Positions 3,387 through 36,746 of a stretch of DNA of 41,845 nucleotides are shown in pieces. Location: the IMG/VR virus record IMGVR_UViG_3300039314_000292. One strand, 5' to 3'. The position numbers and the translations under genes were made by a program. The DNA comes from a virus (Duplodnaviria > Heunggongvirae > Uroviricota > Caudoviricetes). Below the pieces are notes generated by a model. The model saw only the letters and a program-made list of their open reading frames with translations. It did not search any database and was not told the origin of the DNA. Positions within the stretch are counted from its first letter, which is position 1, and each line of letters begins with the position of its first letter.

Positions 3387-6300
3387 TTAACGTTCTTCCA
3401 GAGACTGAATCCGCTCTTTTATCTTATCCATTTCTCTGCGCTGCCATGCTGCCTCGATATAGAATAAGAGATCAGGTCTGACCCCCCATCTAGATCCTGC
3501 TGGCGTTATTTCAACGCGCTCAATGATGTCTTCCATTACCATCACTGGATTATCATCCTCATCAACAATAATGCTCCCGTCATTATCAGTCAGCGGCATT
3601 TCCCTTTGGCCAGTAATGACGTCATCATATACTGCGGGATAATCGTCATAGCAAAGAAACGCATAGCGGCATGTTGTGCTTTCTTCTTCCATGAGTCCGT
3701 GAGAAATAAGAACATCACGAAGTTGCTGCGCGATTACACCATGATGTATCCTCGCCCCTTCTTCCCCCTTTATAGCGACAGCGTTCAGCCATTTATAAGC
3801 GATATACCTGACGTCACCCCAGGCATCCAGCAATGCTTCGTCAGGAGAGACCGGCTCTGTCTTTAATGTTCCGTCACTGGTAACCACAGGATTGGAGCCA
3901 AGATAAACTGTCGAGAACCTGTTTCCCGGACCACCAAGAGCATTTACATTATCAAGATAAGGTTTAACATCTCCGTTCTCAAAAAGATGTTCGAGTGCGT
4001 TATATACCGCGCGACGTGGAGTACTGCTTCCGGAACCATGCAACGTTATCATTGCACCATCTGCTGAAGACGTTGTTTCACCGCCGCTAACGATTAATCT
4101 CTGAGCGGTAACATCATCAGACGGTACTTTCTTCGCAATAATGGCGTAATTACCCTCAAGTTTGACTTCCGCGCGAACTTGTCCTGATGTACCTGCATGG
4201 ACAGTCAGTGACTGGACGGCAACATCATCTGTGAAATCAACGGGTACAGGAACCGTCCTCACGCCTGACGTCGACATAAAAGTAGGAAGCGTTCTGTTAG
4301 GAGTGGCTCCGTAGACAAAATCCCTTGAAACAAATTCTTCCTGTTTAATTTTCACCCTGAAACAATACAAATCAGCCGGGTGACCATCGTGAACATAAGG
4401 ATATTTTCTGTTGTTATCCCCTATGCTCCATGGGTTTAGAAAGTCTTCCCCACCGAAAATGTAGTACAGCCAGTTGTCTTTGATACAAACTGAACCAACA
4501 CCAACCGCAGAGTTAACTATTCCGCCCTGATAAATCTGATCAGTAACATTAACCCACTCTACATTATCCAGACTCCACTCATTGACGTTAACTCTGGTCA
4601 TAAATGTTCTTGGATAATTTCCTGCATAACGGTTATCAGGTTCTCCTCCTTCCCACTCACCAAATGCGCGCTCACTGCCAAAAATAATCAGCTCATCGCC
4701 AACTTTGGCAAAAGGAAGGTTTGAGTGATGAACATTATTTGGGAAGCGAAGAGAATTCCATGATGTACCTAAATCAGAGCTTCTGTGCAATGAACTACCG
4801 GGTTGAGTACTTAATGTCCCCCTGGTCGTCAGATACAGAATGCCATCATAATATTTTACACATGGCTCAGATGCATTCGCCTCATATTCTGCAGGTATGC
4901 GTCTGCGAACAAAGCTACCAGGAGAACCGAAAGCATCAGAGAAATAGAGTATCCCAAGCTCGCGTGGACCAATATCACCATTATGGTAGCCAACAGCAAA
5001 ACTGTTATCGCTAATCGTCGCAAAACTGTGAATCTCAGTAACAGGAGTGCTTCCGTCAACAAAAGAAGGAATAGTTCCAAGACTGGTTTTTCTCCATGGT
5101 GACGAGTGAAATGATGTACCAAAACTCCAGTATCTACCCTCGTTATTCTGATCCACATCCTGGGTATTTTGCGTCGTAACTGTAAAAGTATTTTTATCAA
5201 TAACAGTAGTCACCGTCATATTCCCGGTAACACCTGTAACACCAGAGTTTGAGAAGTTGACAAAATCACCAGCAAATAATCCGTGATCAGTAATGCGAAT
5301 ATAAGCGACTTGCTGATTTGCTGCTTTCGTTATACCACCATAAACGCGAAGGCTGCGACTCATTGGGCGATCCCACAACTCTGCAACCTGCAGTTTATTT
5401 CCGCTCACGGTCCGCGTCTCAATTACAGCAAAAAGGCGATTTCTGACAACCCCCATACTCATGCAGTGATAGTTAACTGTGGGATAGTTTTCATGTAAAT
5501 CTGTAAGCCATTCCGGCGTTGTCCAGGTCTTCCCGTCATCTCCTGAGCGAACCCATGCAACATGGAGGTTATTTACACCATGGCGGTCTCCAGCCATAAA
5601 AGGCGCATAGATGACATTGTCATATACAAACGTTTTATCCTGCGTCCAGGCGTTGTACCACGGTGTATCTGTAATTTTAAATAACTCTCCCTGGATAAAA
5701 TCTTCAGAAGCATAAAAAAGAGGCTGGCCCGGTATTCTCTCAAATAAAAAACGAGCATTTTTAAATCGACTGACATCCGGAAGAGTTGATACTTTAAAAG
5801 TAAGCCCTAATCCGTCAATTCTATAACCTGGAGATGAGGCTTCAAGGCACGCGCTTATTGCAGTGGAATCGTCATTTATACCATCACCAACAGCTCCAAA
5901 ATCTTTGGGGCTAATAGCATCACGCATTTTATCCTGGAACGTTCGGTACACAGCCCCAGAACCATACTGAATAAACCAACCAAAACCACCAACAACCCCG
6001 GCGATTGCAGCATCGACATAATTACGCATTGAGCGATTATTTACAGCGTCCTGCTCAAATGATGGATCTGCAAGGTTAGAAATTTTGTTTTGCTTTGCAT
6101 CGTAATATTTTGCAAGCAAAGATGGTTTCATCAATGCACGTCTGAACCACCCAAAACATTGCTGGATCAGCATCGTCAGGTAGTCAAAGGCATCTTCATG
6201 CACTTCGGGGAAAAATTTTCCCTGATTGCGAAGGTCTGTCTCCTGCACTACATCAAGCACACGATCTATCGTAATTCGCCATCCAGTAGCAAGCGGAGAC

Positions 6301-6506
6301 GGAAGAACCACAGAACCGCCACTATAAGTGCCCGCCCCAGTTACCGTATAACCGGTATCCAGAACCAATTCTGTTACGTTTCCGTTCAGGTCAGACACCT
6401 GAACAACCAGGTCTGATTTTCTGAAAATTCGAAAAGTATACGGAAACGATGTCGTAACGCCGTTACCGGTGTATTCGTTGTGGTCAACTTCGGTTGAGAC
6501 CGTCAT
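3387..6506 (-). CDS. tailspike / receptor-binding depolymerase with C-terminal intramolecular chaperone domain (1039 aa)
   Basis: N-terminal NEYTGNGVTTSFPYTF segment typical of podovirus spike N-termini; DFGAVGDGINDDSTAI beta-helix (pectate-lyase-3-like) signature; Asp-box motifs SGDDGKTW and SSDLGTSW; C-terminal about 160 aa with SDGTLKT motif resembling self-cleaving chaperone (peptidase S74-like) domains. Confidence 0.9.
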   Translation of the reverse strand: MTVSTEVDHNEYTGNGVTTSFPYTFRIFRKSDLVVQVSDLNGNVTELVLDTGYTVTGAGTYSGGSVVLPSPLATGWRITIDRVLDVVQETDLRNQGKFFPEVHEDAFDYLTMLIQQCFGWFRRALMKPSLLAKYYDAKQNKISNLADPSFEQDAVNNRSMRNYVDAAIAGVVGGFGWFIQYGSGAVYRTFQDKMRDAISPKDFGAVGDGINDDSTAISACLEASSPGYRIDGLGLTFKVSTLPDVSRFKNARFLFERIPGQPLFYASEDFIQGELFKITDTPWYNAWTQDKTFVYDNVIYAPFMAGDRHGVNNLHVAWVRSGDDGKTWTTPEWLTDLHENYPTVNYHCMSMGVVRNRLFAVIETRTVSGNKLQVAELWDRPMSRSLRVYGGITKAANQQVAYIRITDHGLFAGDFVNFSNSGVTGVTGNMTVTTVIDKNTFTVTTQNTQDVDQNNEGRYWSFGTSFHSSPWRKTSLGTIPSFVDGSTPVTEIHSFATISDNSFAVGYHNGDIGPRELGILYFSDAFGSPGSFVRRRIPAEYEANASEPCVKYYDGILYLTTRGTLSTQPGSSLHRSSDLGTSWNSLRFPNNVHHSNLPFAKVGDELIIFGSERAFGEWEGGEPDNRYAGNYPRTFMTRVNVNEWSLDNVEWVNVTDQIYQGGIVNSAVGVGSVCIKDNWLYYIFGGEDFLNPWSIGDNNRKYPYVHDGHPADLYCFRVKIKQEEFVSRDFVYGATPNRTLPTFMSTSGVRTVPVPVDFTDDVAVQSLTVHAGTSGQVRAEVKLEGNYAIIAKKVPSDDVTAQRLIVSGGETTSSADGAMITLHGSGSSTPRRAVYNALEHLFENGDVKPYLDNVNALGGPGNRFSTVYLGSNPVVTSDGTLKTEPVSPDEALLDAWGDVRYIAYKWLNAVAIKGEEGARIHHGVIAQQLRDVLISHGLMEEESTTCRYAFLCYDDYPAVYDDVITGQREMPLTDNDGSIIVDEDDNPVMVMEDIIERVEITPAGSRWGVRPDLLFYIEAAWQRREMDKIKERIQSLEER

Positions 6507-6610: not shown

Positions 6611-6625
6611 TTACCTTTCAGGTGA
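6611..6625. promoter_or_regulatory. operator-like site TTACC-N5-GGTGA (near-perfect copy of the repeated palindrome)
   Basis: TTACCTTTCAGGTGA about 40 bp upstream of the LexA box; 4/5 match in second half-site. Confidence 0.45.
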
Positions 6626-6988: not shown

Positions 6989-7007
6989 ATTTACCTTTGC
7001 GGTAAAT
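6989..7007. promoter_or_regulatory. operator-like 19-bp perfect palindrome ATTTACC-N5-GGTAAAT
   Basis: ATTTACCTTTGCGGTAAAT; perfect 7-bp inverted half-sites; between small SOS gene and antirepressor gene. Confidence 0.6.
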
Positions 7008-7096
7008 TTACATCGCACTCCTCTTGTGCCATAGTAATCGGGCACTGGCAAAATCCAGTGCCGGGATTGGCGTCCCGGGTTACTAAGTGGCGCATA

Positions 7097-7118
7097 CCAC
7101 GCCAGACGTGGTTTTTTT
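7097..7118 (+). terminator. putative intrinsic terminator preceded by two strong hairpins
   Basis: CCACG-CCAGA-CGTGG followed by TTTTTTT; upstream hairpins GGCACTGG-CAAAAT-CCAGTGCC (7041..7062) and CCGGGA-TTGGCG-TCCCGG. Confidence 0.5.
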
Positions 7119-7274
7119 ATGCGTTAAGCACAGCTATATCCGAATTATGGTGGGCTGGGCAGGGGTCCGAAAGGACGCCGGTACCACTTAGGCCGGTACG
7201 CCAACCTTGTCCAGTTCACCACCAGTAATTGGCGTTGCGGTGGTGATTAAAATCACTAAGTGGAGATAACCACC

Positions 7275-7985
7275 ATGGCTAATGCTCAAACTGCCATCTT
7301 CAAATTTGAATCTGTTAACCCTATCCGTTCCATCATTATCGATGGCCGACCATGGTTTGTAGCCCAAGACGTTTGTAGTGCGCTGCGTATCCAAAACGTC
7401 ACCCAAGCACTTGAAAAACTGGATGATGATGAAAGGTCTATGTTCAACATAGGGCATGAACATCGTGCAATTTTTGACAGCCGAGTAAAAGAGATCAACA
7501 TTATCTCCGAGTCAGGCCTCTACACACTGATCCTCCGCTGCCGCGACGCAGTGACACCAGGCACTATCCCCTACCGCTTTCGTAAATGGGTTACAGGTGA
7601 GGTTCTTCCTCAGATCCGCCGCACCGGAAGTTACATTAAAAACTCGCTCCCGCAGGAAGAACGCATAAAGATGGTTGCCGACCAGGTAGCCAACGCCACG
7701 GCGTCAGCAGTAATGCAGGCGATGAAGATAGAGAACAAAACCTACAGTGCCCCGCTGAAGCCCGGCTACCGCAGTCTGATTCATTCCCCATCTGGTGTTC
7801 TCGGCCTGACGGAGCACTCACTGCTGATGAATCTGCTGAACCAGTTACAGGAAGACGGGCACGACGTATCGGGCGCGGCGGCGGAGCTGACCACCATGTT
7901 CTGCTACATCGTCGGTGTAAGCAAATGCCTGCGTGATATCCAGACGCACGCGGAGTACATCAACGACAAGGCTGGGTTCTTCTGA
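7275..7985 (+). CDS. Bro-N domain antirepressor-like protein (236 aa)
   Basis: ATG 7275 with GGAG RBS; N-terminal Bro-N signature (FKFESVNPIRSIIIDGRPWFVAQDVCSALRIQN...); C-terminal domain paralogous to 6702..6959. Confidence 0.8.
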   Translation: MANAQTAIFKFESVNPIRSIIIDGRPWFVAQDVCSALRIQNVTQALEKLDDDERSMFNIGHEHRAIFDSRVKEINIISESGLYTLILRCRDAVTPGTIPYRFRKWVTGEVLPQIRRTGSYIKNSLPQEERIKMVADQVANATASAVMQAMKIENKTYSAPLKPGYRSLIHSPSGVLGLTEHSLLMNLLNQLQEDGHDVSGAAAELTTMFCYIVGVSKCLRDIQTHAEYINDKAGFF

Positions 7986-25870: not shown

Positions 25871-26077
25871 TTACTGACCAAGCAGCGTTTTACCGCTGGT
25901 ATTAGCGGTTGATGTGTCGCCCTGAGAACCGGTAAGCAGCGTAGAACTACGACCAGCAGCAGCGCGACGGCGACGAGTTTCTTCGTCGCGGGCATCAACA
26001 ACGGCGGCATCCTGCTCCTGTGGTGCTGCCTGAACTTCTGGTGTTGCAGGCACTGATGGTGAGCTACCCATGCACAT
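25871..26077 (-). CDS. small protein upstream of portal (68 aa)
   Basis: GGAGTC RBS 8 nt upstream of ATG; Ala/Pro/charged composition. Confidence 0.45.
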   Translation of the reverse strand: MCMGSSPSVPATPEVQAAPQEQDAAVVDARDEETRRRRAAAGRSSTLLTGSQGDTSTANTSGKTLLGQ

Positions 26078-26145
26078 ATCAATGACTCCGTACGCAATTA
26101 AATTATTACCAATTTAACCACATATGATTTATTTATCGTAGATAC

Positions 26146-26182
26146 TTGACATTTAACGCACTAATTATTACCTTTCAGGTAA
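26146..26182 (+). promoter_or_regulatory. putative promoter (TTGACA -35) overlapped by perfect TTACC-N5-GGTAA operator, facing the tRNA
   Basis: TTGACA at 26146..26151; operator TTACCTTTCAGGTAA at 26168..26182 overlaps the -10 position. Confidence 0.45.
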
Positions 26183-26504
26183 GCAAAGAGTTCATTCCGG
26201 TTATTAACCTGACTGGCTTGTCGTTAAATTGAACAGGTGGGGTGAGCTTTTATTTTGAGCAGTACGGTGTATGGCACATGCGCCGATAGCGGTCTGGATA
26301 CGTTTAAGGGGCACCCTCCCTTGCTCGGGCAAACGAACCAGGTAGCCGGAATGTGCAAGTCGAGCGGTTTTATTCCGCGCACGGGGATTCACCATCCCGG
26401 CGATTCGGTGTGACGCCTCGGAAGAGACGAGGGTACAACGATGAGAGCATTTATGGAGCCGCGACAAAGTGTGGCGCCTTAACAGGCTAAGTGCTCTCAG
26501 CGTT

Positions 26505-26581
26505 GTGGCATTAGCTCAGTTGGACAGAGCAACCGCCTTCTAAGCGGTTGGTCGCAGGTTCGAATACTGCATGCCACGCCA
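26505..26581 (+). tRNA. tRNA-Arg (anticodon UCU), phage-encoded
   Basis: Cloverleaf readable by eye: 7-bp acceptor GTGGCAT/ATGCCAC, D-stem GCTC/GAGC, anticodon stem ACCGC/GCGGT with loop CTTCTAA, T-loop TTCGAAT, 3' GCCA; one T-stem mismatch (G53-A61). Resembles argU (memory). Confidence 0.85.
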
Positions 26582-26624
26582 GAATCACGCCTAAGGACCG
26601 TGATGCCAGAAGTTCCAGGTGCTT

Positions 26625-26668
26625 GGCGGTGATGGTTTCCCTTGAAGGACTATCACCGCCCTTTTTAC
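26625..26668 (+). terminator. rho-independent terminator after tRNA
   Basis: GGCGGTGAT...ATCACCGCC stem followed by CTTTTTAC. Confidence 0.6.
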
Positions 26669-26744
26669 AGCAGGACGCCATTGCGATGACTTCATGCTGT
26701 AAACCAGTACAGCCACGGAAGGCATAACTCATTGCTTCCAGTTC

Positions 26745-26769
26745 GCCCGGTTCGTCCGGGCATTTTTTT
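26745..26769 (+). terminator. second rho-independent terminator
   Basis: GCCCGG-TTCGT-CCGGGC followed by ATTTTTTT. Confidence 0.6.
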
Positions 26770-26785
26770 GCCTGATGACCACAAA

Positions 26786-26803
26786 TTACCTTAAAGGTAT
26801 AAT
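26786..26803 (+). promoter_or_regulatory. operator-like site overlapping a TATAAT -10 element of the moron promoter
   Basis: TTACCTTAAAGGTAT (26786..26800) with TATAAT at 26798..26803. Confidence 0.5.
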
Positions 26804-26804
26804 C

Positions 26805-27653
26805 ATGAAAAACTTTAAGGTAATTAGTATGTTCGAATCGTTCAAAGAGCTGTTTTCATCTACTGCCAATACTGCCGTGCATCGAGCTAAAAACCCTGTG
26901 CTTGGTGCTTTTGTTATGTCTTGGTGCGCCTTCAACTGGAAATCACTTCTTTATCTATTTTTTAGCAAATCAAATATAATAGATAAAATTTCATACATCT
27001 CAGATAACAGCACATGGAAAACTGTTATGTTTTATCCATGCTTATCTGTAATTACTATCTGCTGCCTATTACCATGGGTAAACAATATCATTAACGTATG
27101 GCAAGCAAAGCCTCTTGATAATAATGACTCAATCGAAAACCACCGGAAGGCAAGAAAAATACAACGTGAAACACGGCTACAGAGATTGCTGGCTAAAAAA
27201 GACATTACTTACGAAAAAGTAAAAACAGGCGCTGAAAAAAACATTCAAGACATGAAAGAGGAAATAATTCTTTCAAAAGACAGAATGGGACAACTCACAT
27301 CTGAATTGAAAGAGAGGGAGACAGAACTGCGCGCAGCACAAGCTCGTATTTTAGAATTATCTAAGGTTATTGATGAAACAACATCTAAACTAGAAAATCT
27401 AGAAAAAACTCACAAAAATTTAAAAAACGAATATGAGTCCTATAAGAAAAACATTCCTTTGGCAACAAATAATACAATTGCTAATGGGCTTGCAGGTCTA
27501 AAATCATTACAAGACTTTAATGAGTCCGTAAAGAAACTTGGCGTTACTGGAATTAACAATCCAGAAATCAGTACATTATTGAATAATCCTCTAGTAAATA
27601 TAAATGGTGATTTAAATTCCACCTATCAAAGAAAATCAAAAACACAAAAGTAA
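26805..27653 (+). CDS. low-GC membrane protein with two TM helices and long coiled-coil domain (282 aa); candidate abortive-infection/exclusion protein
   Basis: Strongly AT-rich; antisense to the late operon between terminase and portal; TM segments then K/E/L-rich heptad-like region. Start at 26805 or 26829 (promoter geometry favours 26829). Confidence 0.7.
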   Translation: MKNFKVISMFESFKELFSSTANTAVHRAKNPVLGAFVMSWCAFNWKSLLYLFFSKSNIIDKISYISDNSTWKTVMFYPCLSVITICCLLPWVNNIINVWQAKPLDNNDSIENHRKARKIQRETRLQRLLAKKDITYEKVKTGAEKNIQDMKEEIILSKDRMGQLTSELKERETELRAAQARILELSKVIDETTSKLENLEKTHKNLKNEYESYKKNIPLATNNTIANGLAGLKSLQDFNESVKKLGVTGINNPEISTLLNNPLVNINGDLNSTYQRKSKTQK

Positions 27654-36161: not shown

Positions 36162-36746
36162 ATGAAAAGTATCCAGGACGTCCGCAGGCAAAATCTCAAC
36201 GACTTGATCGACCGTGAATTCAATGGTGTTCAGACGCGGATGGCAGAAAAACTTGGAACTCAGGCAAATCTGGTAAACCGCTGGGCTCTTGGCAAGAAGG
36301 TTATCGGCGATCAGGTTGCACGAAAAATTGAAGCTGCCGCCAATAAACCCCGTAACTGGCTTGATATTGATCGCTCGCTTTCTCAGGAGGGTTTTCAGCC
36401 TGTCGGCCCGAGTGATATAGGTCAGCTGGCGGCTCACAACCTGGAACGCTGGATGAGCGAAAGCCGCGACCTTTCAACGCAGGGAAAACTACACCGCGCA
36501 TCCGGCGTCGCCCAGGTGACAATCAGCCGCCTGTTAAACAATGAGGTCAGCGTTTCCATTTCCACCCTGGAGAATGTTGCATCCGCATTCGGGCGTCACG
36601 GCTATGAATTACTGATTCACCCGCACGACCCTGCAACCATCAACTATGATCGCTCGCGCTACGCATTGTTACCCGAAACCGAGAAAGCAAAGATCGAAAG
36701 TTACATTGAATTTGTCATCAACCAGAACGAAAAAAACAAACAATAA
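36162..36746 (+). CDS. CI-like repressor with two HTH (XRE-type) domains, no S24 autopeptidase domain (194 aa)
   Basis: HTH QTRMAEKLGTQANLVNRWALGKK and a second HTH-like segment; flanked by operator clusters; own terminator. Confidence 0.65.
   Translation: MKSIQDVRRQNLNDLIDREFNGVQTRMAEKLGTQANLVNRWALGKKVIGDQVARKIEAAANKPRNWLDIDRSLSQEGFQPVGPSDIGQLAAHNLERWMSESRDLSTQGKLHRASGVAQVTISRLLNNEVSVSISTLENVASAFGRHGYELLIHPHDPATINYDRSRYALLPETEKAKIESYIEFVINQNEKNKQ

Follow-up and report, generated by a model that had tools for sequence, protein, structure and literature searches.

A large structured RNA preceding a tRNA-Arg gene in an epsilon15-like phage, with relatives in lambda-like and P1-like phages

The put RNAs of the phages HK022 and HK639 are non-coding, folded RNAs located just 3′ of the promoter pL, ahead of terminators, in lambda-like phages that lack N (PMC9378689). 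They are about 70 nt long and consist of two stem-loops, and HK022 carries two copies, putL and putR (PMC9378689). Here, we describe an RNA element found in a 41,845-nt stretch of DNA from a virus of the Caudoviricetes (IMG/VR record IMGVR_UViG_3300039314_000292; the whole stretch is called the window below), where it precedes a tRNA-Arg(UCU) gene. This element resembles put in being a non-coding folded RNA and, in part of the phages that carry it, in its location, but it is about 245 nt long, has six predicted helices and two predicted pseudoknots, is single-copy in the genomes scanned in full, and is also found before a tRNA gene and before the ban gene. The put-type location (an early promoter on the 5′ side, in a phage without N) recurs in the lambda-like relatives and does not apply to the window, which is epsilon15-like.

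ROOL and GOLLD, as reported by Weinberg and Breaker, are phage-borne RNAs that typically lie beside tRNA genes. They are about 500–800 nt long and are known from other bacterial groups, not from Enterobacterales. Their structures have been studied by cryo-electron microscopy (PMC12286853). Like the element described here, they are elaborately folded phage RNAs next to tRNA genes without a known function, but they differ in size and in the bacterial groups involved, and no Rfam model matches the RNA at our locus. A further small RNA of the same phages is the C4 antisense RNA of P1 and P7 (immI region), which likewise belongs to repressor-controlled operons. C4 is about 77 nt long, base-pairs with known target sites and is reported by Hartmann et al. 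(1995) to be matured by RNase P; neither C4 nor isrK gives a match at this locus. Judged by analogy of context, the element most resembles put (through its position in the pL leader) and ROOL and GOLLD.

The structured RNA and its distribution

The first-pass annotation of this region, made from the sequence alone, centered on the tRNA gene and added that its leader may itself be a structured RNA. This suggestion is borne out by covariation and became our main result: the leader segment 26264–26506 is a structured RNA of ~245 nt, for which we propose six helices (P1–P6) and two pseudoknots (Table 1). Among 34 diverse viral copies, 96.8% of the cells in paired columns are paired and 12 of the 31 pairs change on both sides, resulting in a covariation score of 0.265 against 0.120 in shuffles, a value that none of 500 shuffles reached. 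Sliding the partners by 1–3 columns lowers pairing to 25–48% (at most 47.5%). Pseudoknot 2 shows one clean exchange of C-G for A-U. A second set, consisting of 21 species-representative genome copies retrieved with a different anchor, has 98.8% of its cells paired and 10 of 23 pairs changing on both sides, in an alignment that was fitted to the model and thereby favors the structure somewhat; on every measure, the observed value was unreached by any shuffle. The comparison of these two independent sequence sets thus supports P1, P2, P4, P5 and pseudoknot 2 by covariation.

The long hairpin P6 was assessed differently, as gapless alignment leaves its strands out of register and strand-swap energies had to be used in its place. 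All 24 distinct strand pairs fold, forming helices of about 14–17 pairs, and for eight helix types the cognate strands reach −21.2 kcal/mol compared with −11.3 kcal/mol for non-cognate strands. The folding strand is the + strand, because the frequent G-U pairs (>100 cells, against about 33 non-standard cells in all, in the 34 copies) would be A-C on the opposite strand. The folding energy of the single sequence is only mildly unusual (z about −2.4) and equally so on both strands, and the case for the fold therefore rests on comparison rather than on energy. An alternative from RNAalifold, in which a long-range helix GCACAU:AUGUGC replaces P1, never varies among the copies; the local P1 was kept because it covaries, and four pairs of the long-range helix were retained as pseudoknot 1.

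The core of the RNA combines roughly 50 invariant positions, including a block of invariant unpaired nucleotides, with freely variable peripheral hairpins. Its most constant part is a 19-mer, GGTAGCCGGAATGTGCAAG, found exactly in at least 120 IMG/VR contigs and in 20 of the 21 genome copies retrieved with the independent anchor. A search of Rfam 15, at gathering thresholds as well as at E up to 10, gave no match within 26180–26504, the tRNA being the only match at the locus, and the lambda-like and P1 copies of the element had no match at E up to 1. A coding signal is absent: core lengths are spread evenly over the three remainders modulo 3 (9, 12 and 13 sequences), as are substitutions by phase (11, 14 and 12). 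On these length and phase data, we rejected coding potential for the annotated open reading frames (ORFs) that overlap the element. On the opposite strand, hypothetical proteins are annotated across the tRNA and terminators of phiV10 (PhiV10p04; L001 3512–3763) and across the structured RNA of mEp460 (mEp460_037; L002 2943–3311); both are probably annotation artefacts. Compensatory changes, strand-specific G-U pairs and the lack of a coding signal, the general marks of a structured non-coding RNA, are all present in the element.

Relatives of the element occur in three settings, each with an early promoter under repressor control on the 5′ side. In epsilon15-like phages the element precedes tRNA-Arg, in lambda-like phages it comes just after pL, and in P1 it separates tRNA-Ile from ban. 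Window positions 26264–26508 are about 83% identical to a segment of the lambda-like phages mEp460, cdtI, 2H10, Ayreon, Stx2c phages and some Stx2a phages, and P1 and P7 have a segment with roughly 80% identity to about two thirds of this stretch. The lambda-like copies lie immediately after cI on the early-left gene strand, about 40–60 nt downstream of a promoter with operator-like repeats, and no tRNA follows them. These carriers have no annotated N gene, and their downstream ORFs match only PHROG families that are ParB-like or of unknown function. The P1 copy of the core belongs to the ban operon, which C1 controls: tRNA-Ile(CAU) ends 14 nt upstream of it and ban begins about 100 nt downstream. 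At the site of this copy (L004, NC_005856, 71009–71294), the interval from trnI to ban has no annotation. P1 itself has no P6, and the P1-type contigs L039, L062, L068, L099 and L108 keep a short one. Elsewhere in the ban operon of P1, the upl–tciA intergenic region (L004 1558–1677) matches the prophage small RNA STnc100 at 33.4 bits (E = 8e-4), which is below the gathering score of 47.

We collected 127 occurrences, mostly retrieved by the 19-mer probe and hence a redundant and non-random sample, in which tRNA-Arg follows the element in 28 cases and tRNA-Ile precedes it in 17, while the other 82 lack a tRNA in the vicinity. The element is present in about one third of complete Escherichia coli genomes (1,840 of 5,426), and in the sampled rows of these 1,840 genomes RefSeq annotates nothing over it, except where the tRNA begins within it. 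When species-representative genomes (one per species) were searched with a different anchor, 23 hits proved true by the covariance model. Twenty-two of them belong to Enterobacterales (Escherichia, Citrobacter, Klebsiella, Kosakonia, Phytobacter, Kluyvera, Enterobacter, Superficieibacter, Pseudescherichia, Pseudocitrobacter and Erwinia); the remaining one, possibly contamination, comes from a 1.7-kb contig in a metagenome bin that is labelled Bacillota. The covariance model was run over two full genomes, the window and mEp460, and detected a single copy in each; with filters off, there was still no second copy at pR. We found no description of the element in the searchable literature, including the supplements of an Hfq crosslinking and immunoprecipitation study of enterohemorrhagic E. 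coli, although it may have been described earlier under another name. Taken together, it is a widespread family of structured RNA that lies outside Rfam 15 and is unannotated in the sampled RefSeq genomes.

Homology to put was considered and rejected, as neither the covariance model nor short-word BLAST links the element to HK639, in which a putL-like RNA is annotated, or to HK022. Model R1 found nothing in the early region of HK639 (best match 7.5 bits), and blastn-short of the element against putL returned only words of 7–13 nt (E ≥ 0.6), whereas HK639 putL against HK022 putL gives 2e-5. A shared motif, ACGGCG...CAUGCGUCG, is paired differently in put according to the published putL structure (PMC9378689).

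A second comparison concerns the boxA elements of nut sites and rrn operons. In many copies, the 3′ strand of P6 has the boxA-like sequence GUGCUCUUU or GUGCUCUC, and a hairpin follows it in the lambda-like copies. The boxA sequence is UGCUCUUUAACAA in rrn and CGCUCUUA in lambda. The P6 stretch, however, is base-paired, and it is replaced with matching changes in the opposite strand, for example by GAGUCAUC or GCGCCGUUUCC. We therefore rejected a boxA or nut reading of a strand that is paired, not conserved and replaceable, with no N-like protein downstream.

Promoter, tRNA and terminators of the cassette

Around the structured RNA, the cassette has a fixed order: an operator-controlled promoter, the RNA, a tRNA or tRNA-like helix, a trailer and a conserved terminator. 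The −35 hexamer TTGACA is located 359 bp upstream of the tRNA gene and is followed, after a 17-nt spacer, by the weak −10 sequence TACCTT (26169–26174). A consensus promoter scan made no call at 26146; a similar layout of TTGACA plus operator is present upstream of the element in the related contigs L064, L071 and L120. The first-pass annotation placed an operator over the −10 position, and this is a fair reading given 14 copies of the motif and the pairs that flank a helix-turn-helix gene. When at most one mismatch is allowed, the window has 14 copies of TTACC-N5-GGTAA where 0.67 would be expected, a count that no shuffle out of 100 reached. The copies start at 6611, 6991, 8052, 9643, 26168, 26786, 29719, 29737, 33743, 33805, 36044, 36092, 36804 and 36866; they are mostly intergenic and often paired, and pairs flank a Cro/C1-type helix-turn-helix (HTH_3) gene at 36162–36743, whose product is likely the repressor for these operators. 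This pattern suggests that one repressor controls many dispersed promoters, by analogy with C1 in P1. As the cassette promoter is overlapped by the repeated operator, its gating by a repressor is a reasonable inference. Comparable arrangements are seen in mEp460, with operator-like repeats in an OL/OR layout near the element, and in P1, where the C1-controlled Pban lies upstream of it.

The presumed transcription start (about 26181) would lie 324 nt from the tRNA, and this interval has 53% G+C compared with 49.5% for the whole window. The leader, described earlier as GC-rich and ORF-poor, has 57% G+C in its structured part (26264–26506), and the AT-rich stretch of promoter and 5′ leader (26146–26263) has 38%. 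Short ORFs are present on both strands, but homologues lack a coding signal. The 5′ leader of the epsilon15-like copies (window 26235–26262; L005 and L009) contains GGAGTGCGCTTCCAGGTGTG, which resembles the 3′ strand of P6 elsewhere; the GGAGTGCGCTTCCAGGTGTG stretch may have been left behind by earlier cassettes that lay in tandem or recombined.

Table 1. Features of the cassette in the window (positions of the window; pairings are predicted)
Feature	Position	Strand	Remarks
−35 hexamer TTGACA of the cassette promoter	26146..26151	+	read from sequence; conserved in phiV10
Operator TTACCTTTCAGGTAA	26168..26182		inverted repeat covering the weak −10 TACCTT
5′ leader	26183..26263	+	presumed start to structured RNA; poorly conserved, AT-rich; no alignment with lambda-like or P1 copies
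RNA core	26264..26436	+	covariance model R1, 140 bits, E = 3e-41; only copy in the window
P1	26265-26272 with 26278-26285	+	covariation
Pseudoknot 1	26274-26277 with 26353-26356	+	P1 loop GCAC to GUGC in the 19-mer; invariant, predicted pairing
P2	26289-90 and 26293-96 with 26339-42 and 26345-46	+	covariation
19-mer GGUAGCCGGAAUGUGCAAG	26341..26359	+	nearly invariant; junction after P2
P3	26364-67 with 26375-78	+	proposed variable hairpin; no common sequence among copies
P4	26384-87 with 26395-98	+	covariation
Pseudoknot 2	26390-93 with 26407-10	+	CACC in the P4 loop to downstream GGUG; covariation
P5	26416-20 with 26428-32	+	covariation
P6 (long hairpin)	5′ strand 26435-26451, 3′ strand 26490-26506	+	variable tip; last two bases are the first two of the tRNA
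tRNA-Arg(UCU)	26505..26581	+	3′ CCA encoded; C61-to-A at 26566, opposite G53 at 26558
3′ trailer	26582..26624	+	GCTT(T)GGCGGT into terminator, common to lambda-like copies
Terminator 1, GGCGGTGATGG...CTATCACCGCC then CTTTTTA	26625..26667	+	scan hairpin 26625-26660; conserved in the cassette
Terminator 2, GCCCGGTTCGTCCGGGC then ATTTTTTT	26745..26769	+	scan hairpin 26745-26761, strong

The junction between the RNA and the tRNA has a constant geometry: in each of the 24 linked tRNA copies, the tRNA begins inside the final two bases of P6. Most copies without a tRNA have GUGGUG at the corresponding point, and in 41 of 56 distinct tRNA-less tails its complement CACCAC is located 70–190 nt downstream. 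AAC usually comes next, and a covarying hairpin of 4–5 bp often stands directly before CACCAC. The resulting GUGGUG...CACCAC helix, present in many but not all of the tRNA-less copies, is predicted to be acceptor/T-arm-like. In the lambda-like phages mEp460 (L002 3245–3440) and cdtI (L003), the stretch from P6 to the terminator looks like a decayed tRNA: it consists of GUGGUGA, a D-arm-like GCGC-AGGCUGAU-GCGC with a covarying stem, a T-arm-like CCGG-AGAUCAGCA-CCGG, and UCACCAC-AACA, and its length about equals that of tRNA plus trailer in phiV10-type phages. A small arginine-rich ORF (MRRLMRERH...) after P6 in mEp460 was dismissed as a candidate, as neither its ATG nor its frame is conserved and a hairpin at the same position covaries.

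As the first-pass annotation had noted, two tandem terminators follow the tRNA, each a hairpin with a T run (Table 1). Terminator 1 is part of the cassette: its hairpin GGCGGT...ACCGCC-TTTTTACA has stems that differ yet remain mutually complementary across epsilon15-like, lambda-like, Klebsiella and other contexts, and it is found at the same distance (+284 from the 19-mer) in many copies. Terminator 2 is present in epsilon15-like loci and not in the cI-adjacent lambda-like ones (for example mEp460 and cdtI), among loci whose context was checked. The epsilon15-like unit points into terminase genes, and the lambda-like element has early genes downstream. For P1, no terminator-like site was found in the 1 kb scanned from the 19-mer. 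Trailer and terminator 1 (26582–26667) are conserved, some lambda-like copies sharing GCUGUGUGUAGUCUUG before the terminator, and a separate small RNA could arise from this 3′ end. The same region has weak, sub-threshold Rfam similarity to the terminators of RyhB and RprA.

The tRNA gene, the only one in the window according to ARAGORN (tRNA-Arg(tct)), is genuine, scoring 62.9 bits with the Rfam model RF00005 against a gathering score of 29, with one non-standard pair flagged in the T stem. The conserved G53-C61 pair that closes the T loop is replaced by G53 opposite A61, exactly the mismatch to which attention had been drawn. It does not hold up as a trait of this tRNA: phiV10 and all 23 other element-linked copies carry C61, leaving A61 in one of the 24 tRNA-Arg copies that adjoin the same leader, the window's own. 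A 35-mer centered on A61 has zero matches in the 5,426 complete E. coli genomes, compared with 494 genomes for the C61 version, and the change from C61 to A61 lowers the Rfam score from 73.3 to 62.9 bits. Sequence comparison thus indicates that A61 is a private point mutation or sequencing error rather than a designed feature, and that this is a mutated member and not a variant family; the mutation is possibly mildly damaging. The tRNA itself is an ordinary one, the known phiV10-type tRNA-Arg with a private point mutation.

Codon usage gives a mixed answer to the proposal that this tRNA supplies rare codons for the late genes. AGA codons make up 6.2 per 1000 codons in the ORFs of the window, about three times the rate of roughly 2 per 1000 in E. 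coli K-12, and they are concentrated in the tailspike gene (17 codons) and accessory genes, but there are none in the capsid, portal and terminase genes. The 1039-aa ORF at 3387–6506, presumably the tailspike, holds 17 of the 76 AGA codons and 14 of the 120 ATA codons of the window.

The region 26000–26770 is 99% identical to Escherichia phage phiV10 and its relatives (Uetakevirus, epsilon15-like), and the neighboring small terminase (PF03592), portal (PF12236) and GP7 capsid genes, all on the − strand, match this assignment. Because the genes that flank the tRNA unit (small terminase, the large terminase as annotated in phiV10, a 68-aa ORF, portal and capsid) are on the − strand, the unit is antisense to the structural genes around it, as had been described, with the terminase genes on one side and the portal gene on the other. 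Similarity to phiV10 stops at 26770. Directly 3′ of the terminators, ORF 26775–27653 (likely start 26829, 274 aa) matches PHROG 4780, a family of unknown function, and has a promoter ATGACC-17-TATAAT overlapped by the operator at 26786–26800. phiV10 has a different gene in its place, p03, which is similar to gene 66 of Sf6; the end of the similarity and the different gene together mark the region as a swap site for accessory genes.

At a distance from the cassette, the window carries a P1 immI-like module (6991–7985) that consists of an operator (6991–7005), isrK (7042–7118; 67.7 bits), C4 (7143–7226; 66 bits) and a Bro-N domain gene (7260–7982) that could encode an antirepressor. mEp460 also carries C4 and isrK (L002 706–894). 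With C4 and isrK in the window and in mEp460, and C4 in P1, all three groups of phages that have the structured RNA carry C4-type RNAs.

Possible roles of the RNA

We favor a reading, to which we assign a probability of roughly 0.4, in which the cassette is a repressor-gated early unit that makes non-coding RNAs, with the ~245-nt pseudoknotted RNA as its main product and tRNA-Arg as a frequent but dispensable passenger. Release of the repressor from the operator would allow RNA polymerase to transcribe about 485 nt, from about 26181 to terminator 1. RNase P would subsequently cut at the 5′ end of the tRNA, between U26504 and G26505 (CGUU/GUGG), giving the structured RNA a defined 3′ end, and in lambda-like phages the degenerate, tRNA-like acceptor/T-arm helix would take the role of the tRNA for RNase P. 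The released RNA would be stable, and its invariant pseudoknotted core may bind a factor shared by Enterobacterales hosts during early lytic growth, most likely a component of the transcription or termination machinery. Since the unit in the window is a dead end, antisense to packaging and head genes, its RNAs must themselves be the products. The junction geometry fits such processing, with a true tRNA in the 24 linked copies and the GUGGUG...CACCAC helix in many tRNA-less ones. Known tRNA-linked processing (3′ external transcribed spacers and mascRNA-type 3′ ends) similarly involves a tRNA or tRNA-like helix that abuts another RNA, but here the upstream partner is a large conserved fold and the cleavage is a putative one.

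Several points weigh against this reading. No expression, processing or stability of the RNA is reported in searchable sources, and the proposed RNase P step is based on the junction geometry. For RNase P, a 5′ leader with base pairing right to the cut position makes a less than ideal substrate. In lambda-like phages, the terminator of the cassette separates the early-left genes from pL, and no further promoter with an operator is evident; transcription has to pass this terminator, which makes an antiterminator function more natural. Finally, P1 lacks P6 and the terminator, and its core abuts the 5′ untranslated region of ban, an arrangement more suggestive of cis regulation than of an independent RNA gene.

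The main rival, which we hold to be somewhat less likely, is that the element is a cis-acting processive antiterminator, put-like without being related to put, which on emerging binds the transcribing polymerase and renders it resistant to terminator 1, to Rho or to both. With such a function, lambda-like phages without N could express their early-left operon, P1 its ban gene, and epsilon15-like phages their untranslated tRNA. The lambda-like location, after cI and behind operator-like repeats, is indeed the place of nutL-N or putL; these carriers have no annotated N, and a conserved terminator separates the element from the first early genes. Extreme conservation across phages with unrelated repressors would fit a host partner such as RNA polymerase, and the strong additional terminator 2 is found where transcription must really stop, in the epsilon15-like phages. 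RNA-mediated antitermination has also been proposed by others for lambda-like phages without N (PMC12315714). Yet a polymerase resistant to terminators would, in the window, continue into the terminase genes in antisense orientation, and the terminator travels with the element as a unit. There is one copy in each of the two fully scanned genomes and nothing comparable for pR, no likeness in sequence or structure to the putL of HK022 or HK639, and no terminator-like site in the stretch scanned in P1. A core that acts as a sensor (a riboswitch, or a leader that binds a protein or tRNA) and adjusts transcription beyond terminator 1, and with it early gene expression, to the host's condition would likewise explain why the element is always 5′ of what is to be expressed, and the compact pseudoknotted core with variable peripheral hairpins is aptamer-like in build. 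We consider this unlikely, as there is no alternative pairing between core and terminator, which is more than 115 nt away beyond the tRNA or tRNA-like module, no adjacent ribosome-binding site is sequestered (P1 possibly excepted), and no riboswitch class in Rfam matches.

The view of the first-pass annotation, that the leader is the 5′ precursor of a repressor-gated rare-codon tRNA and that its structure serves expression or processing of this tRNA, is in keeping with the operator-controlled promoter, the functional-looking tRNA of the relatives (73.3 bits), and the enrichment of AGA codons in tailspike and accessory genes. We nonetheless regard it as improbable: the leader as an accessory of the tRNA is contradicted by the majority of occurrences, with none nearby in 82 of the 127 and a different one upstream in 17, the RNA is more conserved than its tRNA context, and the tRNA of the window has a private T-stem mutation. 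A ribozyme, for instance one that cleaves itself to define an RNA end, seems less probable still. Two pseudoknots and a block of invariant unpaired nucleotides would suit it, and a defined 5′ end would require processing given the unconserved 5′ flank, but the RNA has no likeness to known self-cleaving classes in Rfam, shows no evident conserved candidate cleavage site besides the tRNA junction, and exceeds in size the small self-cleaving classes, most of which are shorter than 100 nt. That the stretch is not an RNA at all, and instead encodes a protein or is a DNA site, is barely credible. Depositors annotated hypothetical proteins in mEp460 (mEp460_037) and phiV10, and a − strand ORF of the window (26204–26467) overlaps the element; against this stand the core lengths spread evenly modulo 3, substitutions without three-base periodicity, covarying paired columns with G-U pairs on one strand only, and the empty RefSeq annotation in the rows sampled.

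Meaning for temperate enterobacterial phages

We tentatively propose, as a possibility we hold to be short of probable, that the element forms a class of its own among the regulatory RNAs of phages, with no relation to put and with an invariant pseudoknotted core that reprograms the elongation or termination machinery of the host, or otherwise a new ribozyme or sensor, and that lambda-, P1- and epsilon15-like temperate phages of enterobacteria use it interchangeably. Such a class would explain early-left expression in lambda-like phages without N, including Stx2c and some Stx2a phages. If the RNA is indeed what the comparison suggests, a large RNA under strong conservation has gone unannotated in some of the most thoroughly studied temperate phages, among them P1, P7, Shiga-toxin phages and lambda-like coliphages. 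It sits at the first position transcribed after loss of the repressor, which makes it a candidate component of the early switch in prophage induction, including that of Shiga-toxin phages, and makes testable how lambda-like phages without N pass their first terminators.

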